DNA from: a virus
Strand: one strand, 5' to 3'
Length of the DNA stretch: 21,977 nucleotides
UHGV virus genome: UHGV-0256468
The notes under the pieces are model-generated. The model did no database searches and was not told the origin of the DNA. It saw only the letters and a program-made list of their open reading frames with translations. Position numbers and translations under genes: made by a program. The first letter of the stretch is position 1. The number at the start of each line of letters is the position of its first letter. This document shows, one piece after another, positions 1,505-19,824 of this stretch.

Positions 1505-3514
1505 TTATACCTGCGCAACGTTATACCATGTGCCATTGATGTACTTTTGTATCGGCCTGAAGATGGCTTCATCATCGCCATCTACTTCACCAATGATTCT
1601 TAATCCGGTAATCGTGTGTCCGGCTTTTTCATAACGACCACCTCGCGCCATCAATTGAACAACTCGCGTACCCAGGCGAACATCTTTCACATAGCGGGAA
1701 TCGAAATTTCCCCAGTTGCTGGGTTGCATCTGACCGTTAACAGCAAATATTACCGAGTTATCTGTATTTCGCTGGCTATAGAAATGCCATCCGGCCTCAT
1801 CGCCTAATTCTGCAACCACTGGACGGGTGGAAGCACCCCATAAATTAAAGGTAATATTCTTCGTGGATGTGTTAGAGCTGGATAGCGAGAACTTTTTACT
1901 ATCCCCTGCCTGAATATTTTTAAAAGCAATAGCCACTCCATTCTGAAAACGGAATACTCGCTGACTGTTAGCATAAACATCAAGAATACCGTCTCCATTC
2001 TGTTTAAATCCGGTATCATTATCACCAAGAACAATTGAGCTACCACCTAGTGCATTCGTCGTACCAACTCCAAAACAGCCATTAATGACGGCATTAACAA
2101 GAATATTTAGTGCATCCCATTTCAACGTCATCAGGTCTTTTGTTGTGGTACTCTGGCGGCTTCTCCATTTGAAATATTCATTGCCGTTATCCCCCGTTTC
2201 AAACCACATGTATGAATCAGTGTCACCATCGGCATCATTTTTAAATCCAATCTTCGCCCAGTCAGTATTTCGAATCCAGGCAAGGATTGAGTCGTTTTCA
2301 AAAGTAAGTCCACCGGACAAGGTATCGCCATTCTTTTGCACCGCGTTCCTGGCCCTGTTTACCGTTTCCTGCAAACCGAGATATTCGATAACGGCGGCAA
2401 CGGTCGCTTTAGCCAGAATATCCCGTCCGACTTTTGTCAGGGTTGCCAGGCTGGCAACATCATTCCCCGTAAAATACGGAAACCTGTCTGACGCAGTAGC
2501 AAGCCCCGCCAGCGCCGTCAAAGTGGCATCTTTCGGTTGCTTACCCGCAAGCGCATTAGTCATGGTGGTAGCAAAATTCGGGTCATTGCCCAGCGCCGCC
2601 GCCAGCTCGTTCAGCGTATTCAGTGCGTCAGGCGACGAGTCTACAAGGGCGGCAATCGCGGCCATAACGAAAGCCGTGTTTGCGATCTGAGTATTATTCG
2701 TTCCCTGTCGCGCAGTTGGCGTCGTTGGCGTTCCGGTCAGTGCAGGGCTGTTTAATGGCGCTTTCTTGTTCGTTTCATCCATTACCGTCTTAACGGCTTT
2801 TGGTGTTGCGGCGAGCGTCTCAGACATGCTGTTGGTCGCACTACTTAGCTGGACAAGACCTTTTCGCGCTGTGGTAGCGTCCTGTGCGGTATATTTCCCG
2901 TTAGCAAGGTCATATGCGGCCTTAACCGCTTTCGGCGTTGCGGCCAGTGTTTCAGACGTGCTGTTGGTCGCATTGCTTAACTGAGTAAAACCTTTTGCGG
3001 TCAGCGAGGCGTCCGGGTGACGTCGTGACTGTTCATGCTCTGCAATTTTGTCATTAACGTAATCCTGCGTCGCCATCACCGTTGTGGTGTCAATGGTCAG
3101 CTCCACTGAGGCCACACTGCTGACGATGATGATCATGCGGCAGGTCTGCGAACGCCCTGAGCCTTCGGCAAGGGTAGGTTTATAACTTTCGGCCATGTTC
3201 GCCACGGCAATTAACGTTCCCGCATCATCGTACAGGCCAAGCTCTCGCATCCAGAAACCGCCCACCTCCGGCGGAATAACCAGCTCTGCGATAATATAAT
3301 TACTGTTTCGTTTGTCCTGGCTGATTTTGTTCAGCGCATGTCGCCAGACTTCATGGATAAGCCCGGTCTGTCCGGCATCCGGGACAGGCAATTTACCACC
3401 GCCATCCCCGACGGCCATCGTGGTAATGTTGACCTTCCGCCCTCCCGGCGCGGTTGCCGCTGCCAGCTTTGCTGCACCGGCAGTGGTGATAACGGTTCTG
3501 AATTTTGTGCTCAT
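1505..3514 (-). CDS. H: Tail fibre protein (P2 gpH-like)
   Basis: 669-aa ORF with Ala/Thr/Ser/Gly-rich fibre sequence and an internal repeated motif (ATNSxSETLAATPKAVK). Same length as P2 H and located between I and G. Confidence 0.9.
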   Translation of the reverse strand: MSTKFRTVITTAGAAKLAAATAPGGRKVNITTMAVGDGGGKLPVPDAGQTGLIHEVWRHALNKISQDKRNSNYIIAELVIPPEVGGFWMRELGLYDDAGTLIAVANMAESYKPTLAEGSGRSQTCRMIIIVSSVASVELTIDTTTVMATQDYVNDKIAEHEQSRRHPDASLTAKGFTQLSNATNSTSETLAATPKAVKAAYDLANGKYTAQDATTARKGLVQLSSATNSMSETLAATPKAVKTVMDETNKKAPLNSPALTGTPTTPTARQGTNNTQIANTAFVMAAIAALVDSSPDALNTLNELAAALGNDPNFATTMTNALAGKQPKDATLTALAGLATASDRFPYFTGNDVASLATLTKVGRDILAKATVAAVIEYLGLQETVNRARNAVQKNGDTLSGGLTFENDSILAWIRNTDWAKIGFKNDADGDTDSYMWFETGDNGNEYFKWRSRQSTTTKDLMTLKWDALNILVNAVINGCFGVGTTNALGGSSIVLGDNDTGFKQNGDGILDVYANSQRVFRFQNGVAIAFKNIQAGDSKKFSLSSSNTSTKNITFNLWGASTRPVVAELGDEAGWHFYSQRNTDNSVIFAVNGQMQPSNWGNFDSRYVKDVRLGTRVVQLMARGGRYEKAGHTITGLRIIGEVDGDDEAIFRPIQKYINGTWYNVAQV
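2790..2984. repeat. Imperfect direct repeat of about 60 bp, two copies 132 bp apart, inside the tail-fibre gene
   Basis: The two copies are visible as the duplicated peptide LTAFGVAASVSD(M/V)LLVALL in the opposite-strand shadow ORF at 2766..2984, and as ATNSxSETLAATPKAVK repeated 44 aa apart in H. Confidence 0.6.
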
Positions 3515-12380: not shown

Positions 12381-14153
12381 ATGACCATCACCACAGACAC
12401 CACTCTTTTACACGACCCGCGTCGTCAGGCGGCGCTGCTGTACTGGCAGGGATTTTCCGTGCCGCAGATTGCCGCCATGTTGCAGATGAAACGCCCGACG
12501 GTGCAGAGCTGGAAACAGCGCGACGGCTGGGACAGCGTTGCCCCCATCAGCCGTGTCGAAATGAGTCTGGAAGCGCGGCTGACCCAGCTCATCATCAAAC
12601 CGCAGAAAACCGGCGGTGACTTCAAGGAAATTGACCTGCTCGGACGCCAGATTGAACGACTGGCACGGGTAAACCGCTACAGCCAGACCGGCAACGAGGC
12701 AGACCTTAATCCGAACATCGCTAACCGCAACAAAGGCGGGCGGCGCAAACCGAAAAAGAATTTTTTCAGTGACGAGGCTATCGAAAAGCTGGAGCAGATT
12801 TTCTTTGAGCAGTCTTTCGAATATCAGTTGCACTGGTATCGCGCCGGGCTTGAGCACCGCATCCGCGATATCCTGAAATCCCGCCAGATTGGCGCGACGT
12901 TTTATTTTTCCCGCGAGGCGCTGCTGCGCGCCCTGAAAACCGGTCATAACCAGATTTTTCTGTCGGCCAGTAAAACGCAGGCGTATGTGTTCCGCGAATA
13001 CATCATCGCCTTTGCCCGGCTGGTTGACGTTGACCTGACCGGTGACCCGATTGTCCTGGGCAATAACGGCGCAAAACTGATTTTTCTCGGCACCAACTCC
13101 AACACCGCGCAGAGCCATAACGGCGACCTGTACGTCGACGAGATTTTCTGGATACCGAATTTTCAGGTACTGCGTAAGGTGGCATCAGGTATGGCCTCAC
13201 AGAGTCACCTGCGCTCGACCTATTTCTCCACCCCGTCCACGCTGGCGCACGACGCCTACCCGTTCTGGTCGGGTGAACTGTTCAACCGGGGACGCGCCAG
13301 CGCCGCCGAACGCGTGGAAATCGACGTCAGTCATAACGCTCTTGCCGGTGGGCTTCTCTGTGCGGACGGTCAGTGGCGGCAGATTGTCACCATTGAGGAC
13401 GCCCTGAAAGGTGGCTGCACGCTGTTCGACATTGAGCAGCTTAAACGCGAAAACAGCGCCGACGATTTTAAAAACCTGTTCATGTGTGAATTTGTTGACG
13501 ACAAGGCGTCGGTGTTCCCGTTCGAGGAGCTGCAACGCTGCATGGTCGACACGCTGGAAGAATGGGAAGACTATGCGCCGTTTGCCGCGAATCCGTTCGG
13601 CTCCCGCCCGGTCTGGATTGGTTACGACCCGTCACACCGTGGCGACAGTGCCGGATGCGTGGTGCTGGCACCGCCGGTGGTGGCCGGTGGCAAATTCAGA
13701 ATACTTGAGCGTCACCAGTGGAAAGGCATGGACTTTGCCACCCAGGCTGAATCCATCCGCAAACTCACCGAAAAATACAACGTCGAATACATCGGAATTG
13801 ATGCCACCGGCCTCGGTGTCGGCGTGTTCCAGCTCGTTCGCTCGTTCTATCCCGCCGCACGCGATATCCGCTACACGCCGGAAATGAAAACCGCAATGGT
13901 GCTCAAGGCAAAAGACGTTATTCGCCGTGGCTGTCTGGAATATGACGTCAGCGCCACCGACATCACCAGCTCGTTTATGGCTATCCGCAAGACCATGACC
14001 AGCAGCGGACGCAGCGCCACGTATGAGGCCAGCCGCAGCGAGGAAGCCAGCCACGCCGACCTCGCCTGGGCGACCATGCACGCCCTGTTAAATGAGCCAC
14101 TCACCGCCGGTATCAGCACCCCGCTGACATCCACCATTCTGGAGTTTTACTGA
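12381..14153 (+). CDS. P: Terminase large (ATPase) subunit (P2 gpP-like)
   Basis: Start at the MTITTDTTLLHD methionine gives 590 aa, the same length as P2 P. A GAGG ribosome-binding site lies 6 nt upstream. Confidence 0.9.
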   Translation: MTITTDTTLLHDPRRQAALLYWQGFSVPQIAAMLQMKRPTVQSWKQRDGWDSVAPISRVEMSLEARLTQLIIKPQKTGGDFKEIDLLGRQIERLARVNRYSQTGNEADLNPNIANRNKGGRRKPKKNFFSDEAIEKLEQIFFEQSFEYQLHWYRAGLEHRIRDILKSRQIGATFYFSREALLRALKTGHNQIFLSASKTQAYVFREYIIAFARLVDVDLTGDPIVLGNNGAKLIFLGTNSNTAQSHNGDLYVDEIFWIPNFQVLRKVASGMASQSHLRSTYFSTPSTLAHDAYPFWSGELFNRGRASAAERVEIDVSHNALAGGLLCADGQWRQIVTIEDALKGGCTLFDIEQLKRENSADDFKNLFMCEFVDDKASVFPFEELQRCMVDTLEEWEDYAPFAANPFGSRPVWIGYDPSHRGDSAGCVVLAPPVVAGGKFRILERHQWKGMDFATQAESIRKLTEKYNVEYIGIDATGLGVGVFQLVRSFYPAARDIRYTPEMKTAMVLKAKDVIRRGCLEYDVSATDITSSFMAIRKTMTSSGRSATYEASRSEEASHADLAWATMHALLNEPLTAGISTPLTSTILEFY

Positions 14154-15187
14154 TGAGCAAGAAAAAAGGGAAAACACCGCAACCTGCGGCAAAAAAAATG
14201 ACCGCCAGCGCCCCGAAAATGGAGGCATTCACCTTTGGTGAGCCGGTGCCGGTGCTCGACCGCCGTGACATTCTGGATTACGTCGAATGTATCAGTAACG
14301 GCAGATGGTATGAGCCGCCGGTCAGCTTTACCGGTCTGGCAAAAAGCCTGCGTGCTGCCGTGCATCACAGCTCACCGATTTACGTCAAACGCAATATTCT
14401 GGCTTCAACGTTTATTCCGCATCCGTGGCTTTCCCAGCAGGATTTCAGCCGCTTTGTGCTGGATTTTCTGGTGTTCGGCAATGCGTTTCTGGAAAAGCGT
14501 TACAGCACCACCGGTAAGGTCATCAGACTGGAAACCTCACCGGCAAAATATACCCGCCGTGGCGTGGAGGAGGATGTTTACTGGTGGGTGCCGTCCTTCA
14601 ACGAGCCGACAGCCTTCACGCCCGGCTCCGTGTTTCACCTGCTGGAGCCGGATATTAATCAGGAGCTGTACGGCCTGCCGGAATATCTCAGCGCCCTTAA
14701 CTCTGCCTGGCTGAATGAGTCGGCCACGCTGTTCCGCCGCAAGTATTACGAAAACGGCGCTCATGCCGGATACATCATGTACGTCACCGATGCCGTGCAG
14801 GATCGCAACGATATCGAAATGCTTCGCGAAAACATGGTTAAGTCGAAAGGCCGCAATAACTTTAAAAATCTGTTTCTCTATGCCCCGCAGGGGAAAGCCG
14901 ACGGCATTAAAATTATCCCCCTCAGTGAAGTGGCGACGAAGGACGATTTTTTTAATATCAAAAAAGCCAGCGCCGCAGACCTGCTGGACGCGCACCGCAT
15001 CCCCTTTCAGTTGATGGGCGGCAAGCCGGAGAACGTCGGGTCGCTGGGTGATATTGAGAAAGTGGCAAAGGTCTTTGTCCGCAATGAGCTTATCCCGCTA
15101 CAGGACAGGATCCGCGAGATAAACGGCTGGCTCGGTCAGGAGGTCATCCGCTTTAAAAACTACTCACTGGACACTGACAACGGCTGA
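14153..15187 (+). CDS. Q: Portal protein (P2 gpQ-like)
   Basis: 344-aa ORF, same length as P2 Q. Its ATG overlaps the P stop codon (TGATG). Confidence 0.9.
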   Translation: MSKKKGKTPQPAAKKMTASAPKMEAFTFGEPVPVLDRRDILDYVECISNGRWYEPPVSFTGLAKSLRAAVHHSSPIYVKRNILASTFIPHPWLSQQDFSRFVLDFLVFGNAFLEKRYSTTGKVIRLETSPAKYTRRGVEEDVYWWVPSFNEPTAFTPGSVFHLLEPDINQELYGLPEYLSALNSAWLNESATLFRRKYYENGAHAGYIMYVTDAVQDRNDIEMLRENMVKSKGRNNFKNLFLYAPQGKADGIKIIPLSEVATKDDFFNIKKASAADLLDAHRIPFQLMGGKPENVGSLGDIEKVAKVFVRNELIPLQDRIREINGWLGQEVIRFKNYSLDTDNG

Positions 15188-15379: not shown

Positions 15380-16381
15380 TTATAATAATTTGTCCAGCCT
15401 AGCTGAAACAATACCTAGAACAACTGTTGAAACTATATTTAACACCACTCTTAAAATACTCTTCTTTCGCTTCTTACTATATTCATCATACAACCTCTCA
15501 TCACCCTTATTTAATACAATGTACGATGCTGGAGTATAACCATCAATTAATCTCTCTAGGCCTTCACCTAAATGCTCCGCTAACAATGGGATAATAGAAA
15601 ACGCACCAAGAAAGAGCATTAAAAATTTTACTAACCTTTCTTTATCACCAATATCAATATATTCACCAACATTGTACAGTGCATAACTTAAAATCAATAT
15701 AGAAAAAGAAAACCGCATAATCAGTGGAATTAAATACGATATCCTTTGAGCTTGCTGTATCAATGGTATTTTGTTTGTAACTCTTTGACATCCTTCAACC
15801 CATTCTTTAAATGCTTCGATAAAACCTCTAGCCACTACATAATCAGCATATTCAACAACTATTTCTGCTGAACTGGTGAGCATGAATGCAACAAAACGCC
15901 CCCTAATGAAAGGTGGTGCATCTTCTTCCATTTCTTTCTGCATAGCAATTCTTGATGCTAATTTAACAGTAACTTCATAGTGGTTAGGTAATGATGCCCC
16001 TGTCGATAAAATTGCAAAGTTATATTTTAAAATTACACTAATTGTTGGACTACTTCCCGCACTACTCGACATTGCAAACTTATCAAAAGAGGTAAACTGT
16101 TCCTTTCTATCTTTTGAATGTAAAATAGTTACCGTTTCATTTTTCGATATAATATTATGAACATCACACAATTGATTTATTTTTTGATGAACGCTTCTTA
16201 TCTCATCGATATTTATAAGTAAATTCTCAGAGGTTCTCTGCCTTATTGTTTCTGTTGTTCCCGTTATATGTTGATAAATTTGCTGATAAATACGAATGCT
16301 AGTATTAATATCCCGAGAAGCAGGTAACCCACTATTAACCCCATTATTTTTTTCATTTGACTCATCAATTATAATACTCAT
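15380..16381 (-). CDS. Hypothetical 333-aa protein with an N-terminal soluble domain of about 210 aa and three predicted C-terminal transmembrane helices; candidate anti-phage cargo
   Basis: Long ORF in a conspicuously AT-rich block embedded in GC-rich phage DNA, between portal gene Q and the cos site. Hydrophobic segments lie at about residues 214-236, 251-267 and 308-327. It has its own AT-rich upstream region and a downstream hairpin. I do not recognise the protein. Confidence 0.75.
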   Translation of the reverse strand: MSIIIDESNEKNNGVNSGLPASRDINTSIRIYQQIYQHITGTTETIRQRTSENLLINIDEIRSVHQKINQLCDVHNIISKNETVTILHSKDRKEQFTSFDKFAMSSSAGSSPTISVILKYNFAILSTGASLPNHYEVTVKLASRIAMQKEMEEDAPPFIRGRFVAFMLTSSAEIVVEYADYVVARGFIEAFKEWVEGCQRVTNKIPLIQQAQRISYLIPLIMRFSFSILILSYALYNVGEYIDIGDKERLVKFLMLFLGAFSIIPLLAEHLGEGLERLIDGYTPASYIVLNKGDERLYDEYSKKRKKSILRVVLNIVSTVVLGIVSARLDKLL

Positions 16382-16625
16382 TTTATTTCCTATAAAAACT
16401 TAACCAGCAAATTAAATAAAAAGAACACAAGGTTATTATTTAGCGTGCAACAACACGATTGCACAACCAAATGCCACGTGTACGAATCTAACCATTCTCT
16501 TATATTAAATCAAGTCAATACAACCTAATAGACACATTTTTATCGCAGTTATACACTTGGTTAACAATATGCGGATAGTTACTCAAATCAAATTACATAT
16601 ATGACAAAATGAACAATTGCGCGCA

Positions 16626-16644
16626 GTGCTTTCCCCGCCTCGCC
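16626..16644. other. cos: cos site (19-nt cohesive end)
   Basis: GTGCTTTCCCCGCCTCGCC on the plus strand. Its reverse complement, GGCGAGGCGGGGAAAGCAC, is the P2 cohesive-end sequence as I recall it, and it lies in the expected A-to-Q interval. Confidence 0.8.
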
Positions 16645-17044
16645 CGCCCGCTTCACAGGGCGGTTTTAATGCAGTTGCATAGATACTATGGATCCGCACC
16701 AGTCCTGACCGCACGCAGCCTGAACGGACATCCCCAACGCATGCAAAAACATTCACTTGTTGCATGCATAGCTTTTTAAGTACGCCATACCGCAACTGTA
16801 CATTTTTAAGCAATTGGCAACTTTAAAAAATTTACATTGCTTTCAAGACCTTATCATCCGTAGTCTCTGTTTTTTACTTTGAGCTACATCAATAAAATCT
16901 CAAACATGTTTAATGCAAAGCCCTTGTTACACAACATAGAATGTATGTCTAGAAACAACGACATACTATATGTTGTGTTTTTCCGGCCCTCTGTTCGGTG
17001 ATATGCCAAATCACTTTGCGTTTAAACAGAGCATTATTTCAGGG

Positions 17045-17059
17045 CAAGACTTCGCTCAA
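17045..17059. repeat. Direct repeat copy 1 (CAAGACTTCGCTCAA)
   Basis: 15-nt perfect match to 17309..17323. The two copies bracket the 37-codon ORF and its terminator. Confidence 0.5.
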
Positions 17060-17122
17060 AAGTCATTCCACCTAAGAAGCGCATATACCGGTGGAAGTTG
17101 CCCTCTACTTACAGGAGGCAAT

Positions 17123-17236
17123 ATGAAGAAATGCTATTACTGCATTCTCGTTCTGGCCCTCTTTGGCTATCCAAACGGTAGTCCAAGTGGTTTGTCAGTA
17201 AACGTCAGTAATATCAATGTCAGCATTATGCTTTAA
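17123..17236 (+). CDS. Small hydrophobic protein, 37 aa (MKKCYYCILVLALFGYPNGSPSGLSVNVSNINVSIML)
   Basis: AGGAGG Shine-Dalgarno sequence 4 nt upstream of the ATG, and a strong terminator 12 nt downstream of the stop. The N-terminal half is hydrophobic. The longer 88-aa form in the ORF track begins at an upstream ATG with no ribosome-binding site. Confidence 0.4.
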   Translation: MKKCYYCILVLALFGYPNGSPSGLSVNVSNINVSIML

Positions 17237-17247
17237 TATGCTTCAAA

Positions 17248-17279
17248 CAAAAAAACCACCTGCCAGGGTGGTTTTTTTG
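17248..17279. terminator. Bidirectional rho-independent terminator
   Basis: A-run, then ACCACCTG / CAGGGTGGT stem, then a 7-T run (AAAAAAACCACCTGCCAGGGTGGTTTTTTTG). Confidence 0.75.
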
Positions 17280-17308
17280 CGCCCATCATCAATACGATGA
17301 AAGACTGA

Positions 17309-17323
17309 CAAGACTTCGCTCAA
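17309..17323. repeat. Direct repeat copy 2 (CAAGACTTCGCTCAA)
   Basis: 15-nt perfect match to 17045..17059. Confidence 0.5.
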
Positions 17324-17431
17324 GACGAATTATGCGTCGACATAAGGTTACCCGCAATGATTTTATTAGTCTAAATGGATGGCCTTTTATGACCCGGATC
17401 AAACGGCTGTCCTTACCGACATGCTAGTCAC

Positions 17432-17469
17432 TCAATAGCATTTAGCCTTCTAATTCAGCATGCTATTGA
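17432..17469. promoter_or_regulatory. 10-bp perfect inverted repeat (TCAATAGCAT-N18-ATGCTATTGA) with a third ATGCTA copy just upstream
   Basis: Read directly from the sequence, about 70-110 nt beyond the 3' end of gene A. It could be a protein-binding site or an RNA structure. Confidence 0.25.
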
Positions 17470-17538
17470 CCTTCTGCTGCCCCATAACTGCTCCGCATAA
17501 GCCATTCAATGCCATATCAAATTACGTTGTGTTTTTAC

Positions 17539-19824
17539 TCAAATGGGTAACGAGAACCCCGGCCACTCATCAGCGACCGGATATCTGAATTTTTTCCCGT
17601 CATAATTTACGGTTGCCCCACGCGCCAGCGCCTCAATCTCCCATCGCTGCGGCCTGATACCGTTCTGAGCAAGGTCAACGCGGATACGGGTAATTTGCGT
17701 TCGTTCCGACCGGGTCAGTCTGGCCGATGGCGCTATTTCATGTGGTTTTAACAGGCTTCCGTTTCTCTGCTGACGATTTGGTGTTCTCAGTCCGTGTTTT
17801 AATGCACCTCTGAGCGCCCTCACGACCTCTGGCTCATTCCATTCGATAACACCGTCATCAACCAGATTAAGCACGGCTGTGGCATGTTCAGAAGGTGTGG
17901 GAGCCGGTAACGAAGTATCACCACCGGTGAGCTTTCCACAGTTATTGACAGGACTCCGAGGCGCGGCGATGCCGCTTTTTAAAGTCAAAGGCTCAACGAC
18001 CGGCACTTTCGGAACAATGCGCCAGTCCGTCGTTCTGGTGATATGAATATGACGCGCGCCGAGATGCGGCGCGTAAATGCCGACCACTCTCTCGACTTCT
18101 TCCTCGTACTCGTTAACTTCATCCGACGGACTACGGGCAACCCTGACAGTCTGACAATCGCGCGGAACATTTGCCCCACCCTGCGCGCTGATATACAACG
18201 CAAAATCACCACTGTCTGCGGCAGCGCGTGCAGCCTCGACGCGTTCGTCAAACTCATCAGCAATGCTGACGCCGCGAGGCAATTTGCGTAGTTCACGGTA
18301 AGCCCCCATTGTCGGCAGGCCAACCGTTTTAAATTGCGGAATGCGCCACGTTGACGCCCATGCGGTAACAGCCGCGGCAGTGTCTTTCAGCGGCCTGCCG
18401 GTATCGTTATCGAGCTGACCATCCAGTGCATAGCCATCGATGTTTTTTGAGATGTATTTCGCGATATATCCCGCAGCACCGCCCCGGTTAAGGTGTTTTG
18501 CCTGAAAACGGTTTCGCGCGGCTCCTCTTTCGTCACCATCCTCTTTGAGCGCATAGCGACGCATGATTTCGATAATCTGGTTACGCTGGCGTGGATTACA
18601 AAAAAGCATCATATGCCAGTGCGGCGTTCCGTCGTGGTGTGGCTCGACGACTCGCAAACCGTAGACCTGTAAATCATTATCCTTGAATGCCGTGCGCATC
18701 AGGCTCCAGATGCGGCAGAGATAACGCTGCGCATCCTTTGGATTAAATGCCTCATCATTCCAGCCGTGATTTAGCTGGACGGTTTTACTTTCGCCTTTTC
18801 CGACCTGACGTGTCGGGTGATACTTTGACGGCGCGGTCAGAGTGATAAACATCCCCACATCACCCTCTGCGGCGGCGTAACGCTCAATACCGGCGATGGT
18901 GTTCATCAGCTCCATCCGGCGAATTTCAGGATTAGAAATACTGCCCATCACCTTACTGATAAGGTCGATGCGCTCGCCGGTTTCCCTGTTTTCGAGGTCA
19001 CACGATTTAAGAAATTCCAGATTTGCCTGGCGGCGTGCACGCACATCACGAATGGCATGTTTACTGGCATAAGGAGAACGGTCTTTATTGACCTCCCCGA
19101 CAGCAATCAGTAACGCCTCATGCCAGCGCATACGCTGGCCTTTAAGCTGATGAGTCCACCACTCATCGTTAAACAGACGGGCAATGGCAGAATATGCCTG
19201 CCTCGTGGTCATCTGTCCTTTACGGTATTTTTTCCAGTAGAGAGGGGAAATATTGAAAGCACGTGCAGCGCCAGCAACATGACCATACAGATGCGCCTGC
19301 GCCTCATCTGTAAACAGCGATTCTTTCTCGCCATGTGCATCAACCCATGCATCGCAGAGTTCCTCATACATCATGAAAAGCTGCGATGAGATACGGGCGG
19401 CAAACTTTTTCAGCTCCTTGTCATTCATCCCCGGCAGACGCGCATAATGGTCACGCTCTGCCAGAAACAGCAACGACGCGTCGGTGTTCATTTCATGGCG
19501 CTGATTCACGCGCTCAATACGCGGCCATAAACGGCGCTGAAAAGTGGATGTGAGGAAATAAAACCCGTGCACCGGGCTTTTATTGCGCCGGATGTAGTCA
19601 TAGCGTGAAGTAAACAGCGAGCGCAAAAAGTAAGGCAGGCGATTAATCGTGGATAAAACACCTTGCACCTGACGCATCTCGTCACGTGTAAGGGGTCTTT
19701 CGCGCCCGACGGCCTCGCGTGGCGCGTTCCATGCATAAGCACCGGTAAACGTCTCACCGGTGCCTGCGGCAAATGCTGACGGAGGGACAAAACGCCCGGA
19801 GGCTTTAACGGCCATATGAGCCAA
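17539..19824 (-). CDS. A: Rolling-circle replication initiator (P2 gpA-like)
   Basis: 761-aa ORF, same length as P2 A. It has an HUH-type motif (PHWHMMLF) and a tyrosine pair (GYIAKYISK) typical of rolling-circle initiators. Confidence 0.9.
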   Translation of the reverse strand: MAHMAVKASGRFVPPSAFAAGTGETFTGAYAWNAPREAVGRERPLTRDEMRQVQGVLSTINRLPYFLRSLFTSRYDYIRRNKSPVHGFYFLTSTFQRRLWPRIERVNQRHEMNTDASLLFLAERDHYARLPGMNDKELKKFAARISSQLFMMYEELCDAWVDAHGEKESLFTDEAQAHLYGHVAGAARAFNISPLYWKKYRKGQMTTRQAYSAIARLFNDEWWTHQLKGQRMRWHEALLIAVGEVNKDRSPYASKHAIRDVRARRQANLEFLKSCDLENRETGERIDLISKVMGSISNPEIRRMELMNTIAGIERYAAAEGDVGMFITLTAPSKYHPTRQVGKGESKTVQLNHGWNDEAFNPKDAQRYLCRIWSLMRTAFKDNDLQVYGLRVVEPHHDGTPHWHMMLFCNPRQRNQIIEIMRRYALKEDGDERGAARNRFQAKHLNRGGAAGYIAKYISKNIDGYALDGQLDNDTGRPLKDTAAAVTAWASTWRIPQFKTVGLPTMGAYRELRKLPRGVSIADEFDERVEAARAAADSGDFALYISAQGGANVPRDCQTVRVARSPSDEVNEYEEEVERVVGIYAPHLGARHIHITRTTDWRIVPKVPVVEPLTLKSGIAAPRSPVNNCGKLTGGDTSLPAPTPSEHATAVLNLVDDGVIEWNEPEVVRALRGALKHGLRTPNRQQRNGSLLKPHEIAPSARLTRSERTQITRIRVDLAQNGIRPQRWEIEALARGATVNYDGKKFRYPVADEWPGFSLPI

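Follow-up and report, generated by a model that had tools for sequence, protein, structure and literature searches.

The viral genome UHGV-0256468, a stretch of 21,977 nucleotides referred to below as the window, is a P2-like prophage laid out in the reverse orientation of the standard P2 map. Between its cohesive end site (cos) and its replication gene A lie a short direct repeat, a 37-codon open reading frame (ORF) and a hairpin terminator, which are parts of one module of ~580 bp (~16826-17405). Undescribed and unannotated, this module is carried by P2-like prophages and hundreds of Klebsiella plasmids, and from its sequence it looks like a new RNA-controlled toxin–antitoxin family. We estimate a probability of roughly two in three that it is an autonomous two-gene RNA module acting as a type I toxin–antitoxin system, and we regard the RNA-pairing part of this reading, taken on its own, as very likely correct. 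Two features expected of a type I system are found by sequence, namely, a gene for a hydrophobic protein of <60 aa and an adjacent gene for a complementary predicted small RNA (sRNA). The expression of both RNAs, the toxicity of the protein, its repression by the sRNA, and the biological role of the module are only inferred from these sequences.

In the proposed arrangement, a plus-strand promoter would produce a predicted mRNA of ~330 nt consisting of a structured leader, the 37-codon ORF for a signal-anchor-like membrane protein, and a terminator, while a convergent minus-strand promoter would produce an sRNA of ~80 nt that stops at the same bidirectional terminator (Table 1). Because the two convergent genes read the direct repeat in opposite directions, the first ~16 nt of the sRNA are complementary to the upstream repeat copy (copy 1) in the leader. 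Pairing of the sRNA 5′ end with copy 1 would prevent synthesis of the protein.

Table 1. Coordinates of the module, its predicted elements, and its neighbors in the window
Feature	Position	Strand	Remarks
Left-edge conserved block	16826-16913	+	AAATTTACAT..., TTTTTACYTTG, ATCAAWAAA, CAAACAT; upstream of mRNA promoter; shared by phage and plasmid copies
Candidate mRNA promoter	-35-like 16914-16919; -10 16937-16942	+	TGCAAA, 17-nt spacer, TAGAAT; predicted start ~16949 (inferred)
mRNA 5′-terminal hairpin (predicted)	16951-16982	+	Inverted repeat and folds of 11 lineages
Leader stem-loop SL2 (predicted)	16988-17033	+	Outer stem CTCTGTT/AACAGAG, inner stem GGTGAT/ATCACT
Repeat copy 1, predicted sRNA target in mRNA leader	17042-17060 (core 15-mer 17045-17059)	+	~63-64 nt upstream of ATG
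Leader stem-loop SL3 (predicted)	17066-17096	+	TTCCACC...GGTGGAA, conserved AGAAGCGCA loop
3′ strand of helix H4, anti-Shine-Dalgarno, Shine-Dalgarno	17098-17118	+	TTGCCCT, overlapping CCCTCT, then AGGAGG (17113-17118)
37-codon ORF, candidate toxin	17123-17236	+	Peptide MKKCYYCILVLALFGYPNGSPSGLSVNVSNINVSIML
Predicted antitoxin sRNA, ~80 nt	17244-17322	-	5′ seed, stem-loop SL1, terminator hairpin and U-tail
Bidirectional intrinsic terminator	17248-17279	both	Perfect 13-nt inverted repeat CAAAAAAACCACC / GGTGGTTTTTTTG
Repeat copy 2, predicted sRNA seed when read from minus strand	17309-17323	+	Complement gives sRNA 5′ end
Candidate sRNA promoter	-10 17329-17334; -35 17352-17357	-	CATAAT, 17-nt spacer, TTGCGG; conserved geometry
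Right-edge conserved block	17362-17405	-	TTTATTA...TATGAC...ATCAA (+ strand); upstream of sRNA promoter
333-aa ORF, AT-rich	15380-16381	-	Between portal gene and cos
cos	~16627-16645		Alignment to physical ends of linear P2/186-type genome records, ~16645
Gene A (replication endonuclease)	17539-19824	-	3′ end at 17539

The strongest evidence for RNA pairing is provided by the direct repeat itself. The 15-mer CAAGACTTCGCTCAA occurs exactly twice in the window, both times on the plus strand, and none of 100 dinucleotide shuffles contained two 15-mer matches, even with 2 mismatches allowed. Across a comparative sample of 40 distinct full-length modules, the repeats differ by lineage, yet the two copies agree within each module: the sequence is CAAGACTTCGCTCAA in E. 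coli, TGGCAAGACTTCGCTCA in Klebsiella and Citrobacter, GTGACAAGACTTCGCTCA in locus L066, and GGTAAGGCTTTGCTCA in the Salmonella type, whose three substitutions each appear in both copies. When copy 1 was scored against the reverse complement of copy 2 (15 pairs, 15 distinct repeat pairs), 99.6% of the cells in the intermolecular helix were paired and four pairs were changed on both sides. The covariation score of this helix was matched by none of 500 shuffles, and shifted registers paired at only 30-44%. Wherever the copies differ within the 14-position core, which is paired in each of the 15 distinct repeat pairs, copy 1 has G and copy 2 has A. With a plus-strand transcript of copy 1 and a minus-strand transcript of copy 2, such differences become G:U wobbles, whereas the opposite reading would make them C:A mismatches. 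The agreement between copies is unlikely to stem from gene conversion, which would have to act across 16 nt with dissimilar flanks. On this comparative evidence, the two copies co-evolve as an RNA duplex. The predicted cognate duplexes of seed and leader span 15-19 bp at -25.6 to -34.2 kcal/mol, within the range of pairing lengths reported for trans-type antitoxins such as RalA (16 nt; PMC4041452) and TimR (18 nt; PMC7667032).

The same data bear on an account at the DNA level, in which the repeats would be protein-binding sites or scars from the replacement of the P2 genes old and tin, the hairpin would simply end transcription of the P2 early operon, and the ORF would have arisen by chance. 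On the A strand, gene A is indeed followed 260 bp downstream by the terminator, which may well also stop early-operon transcription, and the region is a known recombination hotspot (PMC9122126). The comparative sequence data nonetheless already contradict this account, which we consider extremely improbable. The repeats sit inside a conserved unit and are present in plasmids without P2 sequence, their copies co-vary with G:U tolerance, purifying selection acts on the ORF, and no DNA-binding protein accompanies the module. The original prediction, which had placed the 15-mer pair, the ORF with its AGGAGG and the hairpin terminator correctly, had offered both DNA-level options for the repeats. 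As recombination scars or segment boundaries they are misplaced, lying ~220 bp and ~80 bp inside the module, being kept in P2-free plasmid copies, and co-varying. As protein-binding sites they are hard to sustain, given that no DNA-binding protein is encoded, that the replicons are unrelated, and that the joint changes show a G:U-type tolerance that makes sense only for RNA. Its further suggestions of a small membrane toxin module and of an antisense RNA both fit the comparative evidence, the repeats being best understood as the two halves of an RNA–RNA pairing site, one in the mRNA leader and the other at the 5′ end of a convergent sRNA.

Both predicted genes show conservation of form beyond the repeat. 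In the comparative sample, the geometry of both promoters is conserved, and covariation is seen in the structures of the predicted sRNA and of the leader. Every one of the 40 modules carries, on the minus strand, TTGNNN, a spacer of 17-18 nt, CATAAT, exactly 7 nt, and GAGC(G/A)AAG, the complement of copy 2, with spacers that are unrelated in sequence. The predicted sRNA architecture of seed, SL1, terminator hairpin, and U-tail is alike in 18 of 18 distinct versions. Its seed is a single-stranded 5′ end, the complement of 17306-17322, followed by SL1 (17281-17305), a stem-loop of variable sequence and constant shape in which both partners have changed at 6 pairs. In 16 of the 18 versions, SL1 folds more stably when read from the minus strand, and it contains 25 G:U pairs on that strand versus 6 on the plus strand.

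The terminator, with arms at 17248-17260 and 17267-17279 and a 6-nt loop, begins 11-12 nt 3′ of the ORF stop codon. It is flanked by an A-run and a T-run and is thus able to act in both directions, and because it is common to both transcripts, their 3′ ends are complementary over ~31 nt. It is identical in three copies that were found by BLAST or by an ORF pattern (L004, L039, and L040), differs by one loop change in L037, and has a T-run one nucleotide shorter in L029. It is almost invariant even between copies that are ~72% identical overall. On the sRNA side, its loop, CUGGCA, holds a YUNR (U-turn-like) CUGG motif. A generic terminator scan missed this hairpin, probably because pairing with the A-run places its T-run within the stem.

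The predicted sRNA is built like an Hfq-type trans-acting sRNA, with a 5′ seed, a stem-loop, and a U-rich terminator, and prophage-encoded trans-acting sRNAs are known in E. coli. As such, it might mainly regulate host or phage genes in trans, with copy 1 as a secondary target or sponge. We consider this improbable. Seed and copy 1 have changed in concert in different hosts, which is unexpected for a conserved host mRNA as the main target, and the ORF is always kept beside the sRNA.

The plus strand shows a comparable pattern. ATGCAAA, a 17-nt spacer, and TARAAT (window 16913-16942) occur in 40 of 40 modules while the spacer sequence diverges. The transcript predicted from this promoter would open with a hairpin that is found in most lineages and is lineage-specific in sequence and length. 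The 3′ arm of this hairpin (16969-16982) is also one copy of a 14-nt near-repeat, TATGTTGTGTTTTT / TACGTTGTGTTTTT, whose other copy (17523-17536) abuts the stop codon of gene A. Further along the leader, SL2 shows compensatory changes in 6 of 13 pairs of an RNAalifold consensus, with further ones recognized by eye in the variant L082, and SL3 shows them in two pairs of the consensus fold. A long-range helix, H4, joins the 5′ part of copy 1 (AGGGCAA) to 17098-17104, a segment ending 17-19 nt before the AUG. H4 is predicted in every lineage, with covariation (AGGGCAA/UUGCCCU, GGUGGC/GCCGCC, GGUGACA/UGUCACC, and GGUGGU/GCCACC), and it competes with the sRNA for the same bases of copy 1. In thermodynamic predictions for 11 lineages, the Shine-Dalgarno (SD) sequence is mostly paired, with an unpaired probability of 0.03-0.40; the toxin mRNAs of type I systems usually sequester their SD (PMC11228461). 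A tandem 10-nt repeat, TATGCTTTAA / TATGCTTCAA (17227-17246), spans the ORF stop codon and, in the predicted fold of the window mRNA, pairs with the SD and start-codon region, a possible hok-like 5′–3′ fold-back.

These structures suggest how the module might work. The target site overlaps H4, whose other strand adjoins the anti-SD and SD region, and the sRNA would probably lock the leader in a translation-incompetent fold, mark the mRNA for cleavage by RNase III, or both. Upon loss of the module or shut-off of host transcription, the short sRNA would decay before the mRNA, and synthesis of the protein would follow. The outcome would be plasmid or prophage addiction, or abortive infection in the cos-proximal hotspot of P2, roles that would be expected for a type I system carried by elements of this kind.

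The coding sequence itself is maintained. All copies have an ORF of 37-39 codons that stops just 5′ of the terminator and is preceded by a GGAGG-type SD (in the window AGGAGG, 4 nt 5′ of the ATG); its nucleotide sequence exists in 19 distinct versions, which encode more than 14 different peptides. In every informative pair, the proportion of synonymous differences exceeds that of nonsynonymous differences (pS > pN), and the ratio of nonsynonymous to synonymous substitution rates (dN/dS) is 0.09-0.41. Variable sites at the three codon positions number 19/13/32 in the 37-codon group and 20/5/23 in the 39-codon group, the third position being the most variable. By these substitution patterns, the ORF is under coding (purifying) selection. 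No minus-strand ORF is conserved across the module copies, and the same holds for all other ORFs. An in-frame upstream extension to 88 aa, called by some gene callers, was rejected, as stop codons close it in many lineages.

From a basic N-terminus the peptide continues into a hydrophobic segment of 13 residues and a P-x-G turn, after which polar and hydrophobic residues alternate toward the C-terminus. Its variants follow the pattern M-[KND]-[KR]-x2-3-C-[IL]-[LF]-[VI]-L-x-L-[FIV]-[GS]-x-[PL]-x-x-G, continued by the alternating stretch. Four divergent variants matched no family in Pfam or NCBIfam (E ≤ 10), a protein database search with the peptide returned close relatives only, all of them unnamed, and a full-text literature search with the repeat, seed, and peptide strings matched no paper in the library searched.

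The distribution of the module indicates that it travels independently. It is present in 152 of 5,426 complete E. coli genomes, every time in a P2-like prophage and beside gene A. The cos-to-gene A stretch recurs at ≥99% identity in E. coli W and many other strains, and a second allele of it is ~90% identical. The module is also found in three phage records, one of which annotates the 37-aa coding sequence, as hypothetical; none of the E. coli and plasmid records inspected annotates the module, and in E. coli the Prokaryotic Genome Annotation Pipeline (PGAP) marks nothing at this place. A 74% identical copy lies on a Klebsiella-type plasmid with no P2 genes nearby. Used as a query, this copy retrieved 416 PLSDB plasmid records, with unrelated flanks and without P2 genes. 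Most of these are from Klebsiella (395), the remainder from Salmonella, Enterobacter, Serratia, Leclercia, and Citrobacter; 352 of the 416 are conjugative, and mostly they are Klebsiella IncF plasmids. Pattern scans contributed ~30 IMG/VR contigs, with the module again beside gene A of P2-like prophages, 36 contigs from metagenomes and, among GTDB species representatives, a single one, Citrobacter freundii, bringing the comparative sample to 40 distinct full-length modules. Homology between phage and plasmid copies starts at ~16826 and ends at ~17405, bounds from which a unit of ~580 bp that moves on its own, with the repeats internal to it, can be deduced. Sequence comparison thus shows the module to travel as one piece between P2-like phages and IncF plasmids. 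The conserved blocks at its two edges may be regulator sites or upstream promoter (UP) elements.

Individual copies add detail. In a remnant prophage recovered from a Logan contig (L087, ERR1623625), a single deletion took the 3′ half of the ORF, the terminator, and the sRNA gene, so that codon 16 of the ORF now abuts the prophage's repressor/integrase end. Another copy (L088, GCA_046452175.1) has lost its stop codon, carries a change of the otherwise invariant L13 to S, and has the sRNA -35 deleted; it looks decayed, and as the assembly may hold sequencing errors it was not used as evidence. On the Klebsiella-type plasmid pJ53-KPC_Vir (L004), dinQ and the AgrB sRNA (Rfam, 45 bits; 2817-3291) lie ~550 bp from the module copy, so that two RNA-controlled toxin loci stand side by side.

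Several observations weigh against the toxin–antitoxin reading or limit the evidence for it. At ~13 residues the hydrophobic segment is short, and the tail is polar without charge, both atypical of classical type I toxins; the peptide could be a non-toxic membrane protein. Of the covarying repeat positions, three are contributed by the Salmonella-type clade and one by L066; with so few lineages involved, they represent few independent events. Conservation of the terminator is inflated among the metagenome loci, which were collected with the terminator as the search pattern, making that subset circular. A generic promoter scan called neither promoter, both -35 hexamers match the consensus at only 3 of 6 positions, and the promoter assignments rest on conservation across the 40 modules. 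Blocking of the target site, modeled in the 11 lineages, produced no consistent change in SD accessibility. Finally, in K. pneumoniae MGH 78578, a strain with differential RNA sequencing (dRNA-seq) and RIL-seq (ligation and sequencing of interacting RNAs) data, no module copy was found in the ~97% of pKPN3 that was scanned (126.5-131 kb lay outside the scan), and the pKPN3 sRNA candidates of that study, KpnR_124/126/127/128, are all other loci (e.g., hok).

An alternative is an sRNA-regulated small membrane protein that is not a toxin, for example a superinfection exclusion protein or a conditional membrane modulator, with neither addiction nor killing. All of the RNA evidence fits such a protein equally well, with its short hydrophobic segment and polar, beta-strand-like tail the peptide does not resemble classical type I toxins, and the P2 hotspot harbors diverse exclusion genes (PMC9122126). 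We nevertheless hold this alternative to be unlikely. The module persists, minimal and self-contained, among unrelated neighbors on large conjugative plasmids and on prophages, as addiction modules typically do; regulator and target co-evolve tightly, as in cognate toxin–antitoxin pairs; and TimP, the closest functional analogue and one with a similar peptide, is toxic (PMC7667032).

The genomic setting of the module in the window gives this reading a broader context. The defense hotspot of P2 is the region from gpA to gpQ around cos, in which P2 itself carries old and tin; its exclusion genes are of many kinds, and it is a hotspot of recombination (PMC9122126). The terminase and portal genes of the window are on the plus strand, the portal gene being the ORF at 14153-15187, and the same gene in the E. 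coli W copy of the locus is annotated as phage portal protein. The cos site was located by alignment with the ends of linear genome records (e.g., 32191-32314 of 32314 in ON146439.1 and 30501-30623 of 30624 in U32222.1). A terminator-like hairpin, CCGCCCGCTTCACAGGGCGG, followed by TTTT (16644-16663), lies directly at the cos end, within the part conserved among P2/186-type phages. Nucleotides 16627-16645 correspond, in reverse complement, to the P2 cohesive end of 19 nt.

From cos to gene A (16646-17538), the ORF list contains nothing longer than 88 aa, and no large old- or tin-like ORF lies between gene A and cos. The original prediction was therefore right that no large gene occupies this interval, the longest ORF being the non-conserved extension of the 37-aa ORF. 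Its proposal that old and tin had been replaced here holds for the position, although the protein-coding cargo of the hotspot in this phage is probably the 333-aa ORF on the other side of cos. That ORF has a hydrophobic C-terminal region and is separated from the RNA module by cos; it had no match in PADLOC and, in Pfam, only a sub-threshold one to DUF3894. Portal-side cargo differs among carriers, comprising the 333-aa ORF in the window, a pair of AAA ATPase genes in E. coli W, and in EC1 a set of ImmA/IrrE and two hypothetical genes. The RNA module is on the gene A side of cos in all three. As its position is constant while the portal-side cargo varies, the module is independent of the protein cargo. 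Between the module and the gene A stop codon, a perfect 10-bp inverted repeat, TCAATAGCAT / ATGCTATTGA (17432-17441 / 17460-17469, loop 18 nt), belongs to the phage backbone and is missing from the plasmids.

If the toxin–antitoxin reading is true, the P2 defense hotspot can hold RNA-based cargo that gene-centered surveys overlook; PGAP annotates nothing at the module. Furthermore, the module would be a probable maintenance or defense determinant on ~400 sequenced conjugative plasmids of Klebsiella, Salmonella, and Enterobacter, many of them multidrug-resistance plasmids. The natural seed variants, such as those of the E. coli and Salmonella types, provide ready-made compensatory mutants for tests of RNA specificity. 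A more ambitious proposal, which we offer tentatively and at somewhat less than even odds, is that the module represents a previously unrecognized type I family in Enterobacteriaceae with a par/Fst-like RNA architecture, a minimal ~580-bp addiction or abortive-infection cassette. The same tentative proposal would have the cassette fill the old/tin position, stabilize hundreds of clinical Klebsiella IncF resistance and virulence plasmids, and escape annotation. The combination of convergent genes, a common terminator, and a trans-pairing repeat has so far been described for the Gram-positive par/Fst systems (PMC7472228).

How the module relates to known systems can be approached through families and through architecture. 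It matches no Rfam, Pfam, or NCBIfam family, and no tested family includes it. Rfam was scanned over the region with an E-value threshold and over four divergent loci, with AgrB found beside dinQ on the plasmid as a positive control. Nothing near a gathering score appeared at the module, including for Sok, IstR, OhsC, OrzO, AgrB, Sib, Rdl, SymR, and RalA. The best match, OrzO-P at 21 bits against a gathering score of 60, covered the terminator only, and the weak matches recognize only the terminator. With hok/sok the module shares plasmid- and prophage-borne carriage of a killer type and, in the window, an mRNA fold that pairs the SD region with the 3′ end of the mRNA. The mok overlapping frame, the Hok-family peptide, and the Sok-type overlap at the 5′ end have no counterpart in it, nor is there a Pfam or Rfam match. 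The enterobacterial trans-type systems tisB/istR-1, shoB/ohsC, zorO/orzO, dinQ/agrB, and ralR/ralA combine, as is predicted for the module, a short, imperfect or limited complementarity (16-30 nt) in a long structured leader with a small sRNA that has its own promoter and with an SD-sequestering fold. Their genes, however, are divergent or separate and have no common terminator, and their toxins are unrelated to the module peptide.

The timP/timR pair (RyfA/RyfB) of Salmonella and E. coli offers the nearest functional parallel. Both timPR and the module specify a protein of the 38-41-aa type with a basic N-terminus and a signal-like hydrophobic segment. TimP of K-12 begins with MKIRCFCIVLIVSG and the module peptides with M-[KN]-[KR]-x-C-x-C-I-L-V-L, giving a visible common start of M-K-x-x-C-x-C-I-[VL]-[LV]. 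In both, the sRNA 5′ end pairs with a 15-18-nt leader segment that lies far upstream of the SD and takes part in an alternative leader structure, the SD itself being sequestered; for the module, the pairing and the sequestration are predictions (PMC7667032, PMC11228461, PMC13000454). They differ in that timR is upstream and divergent, whereas the module sRNA gene is downstream and convergent with a common terminator, and in that timPR is a fixed chromosomal locus, whereas the module is mobile. The Rfam model of RyfA (RF00126) had no match at E ≤ 10 in 16400-17700 and none at E ≤ 0.05 in the four divergent loci. Profile–profile comparison with TimP (hhalign) gave a probability of 6%, with only 11 N-terminal residues aligned. 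Membership in the TimP family was set aside on this result (hhalign 6% over residues 1-11) and on the absence of an NCBIfam match, and TimP is kept as an analogue.

The layout of the module is that of par/Fst of the Enterococcus faecalis plasmid pAD1, in which RNA I is the toxin mRNA and RNA II the antitoxin, and of the Gram-positive par-like loci. In par of pAD1, transcripts from convergent promoters end at one bidirectional terminator, and the two genes read across direct repeats from opposite sides (PMC7472228). In both systems, the terminator provides complementary 3′ ends and direct repeats a second, short complementarity; both have intramolecular sequestration of the SD, predicted in the present case, and both reside on plasmids and prophages. 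Complementary terminator loops start the RNA–RNA contact in par, and the same may apply to the CUGGCA loop of the module. The differences lie in the details. Whereas par has two repeats, DRa and DRb, which cover the translation initiation region of the toxin, the module has one repeat pair, with copy 1 well upstream of the ATG. RNA II is ~40 nt long, against ~80 nt for the predicted sRNA. Toxins of the Fst/Ldr type consist of a hydrophobic helix, PXXXG, and a charged C-terminal tail, while the module peptide has neither PXXXG nor a charged tail and no Pfam match, and its hosts are Enterobacteriaceae. By analogy, then, the module is best read as a system whose logic matches that of TimP/TimR and whose layout matches that of par/Fst.

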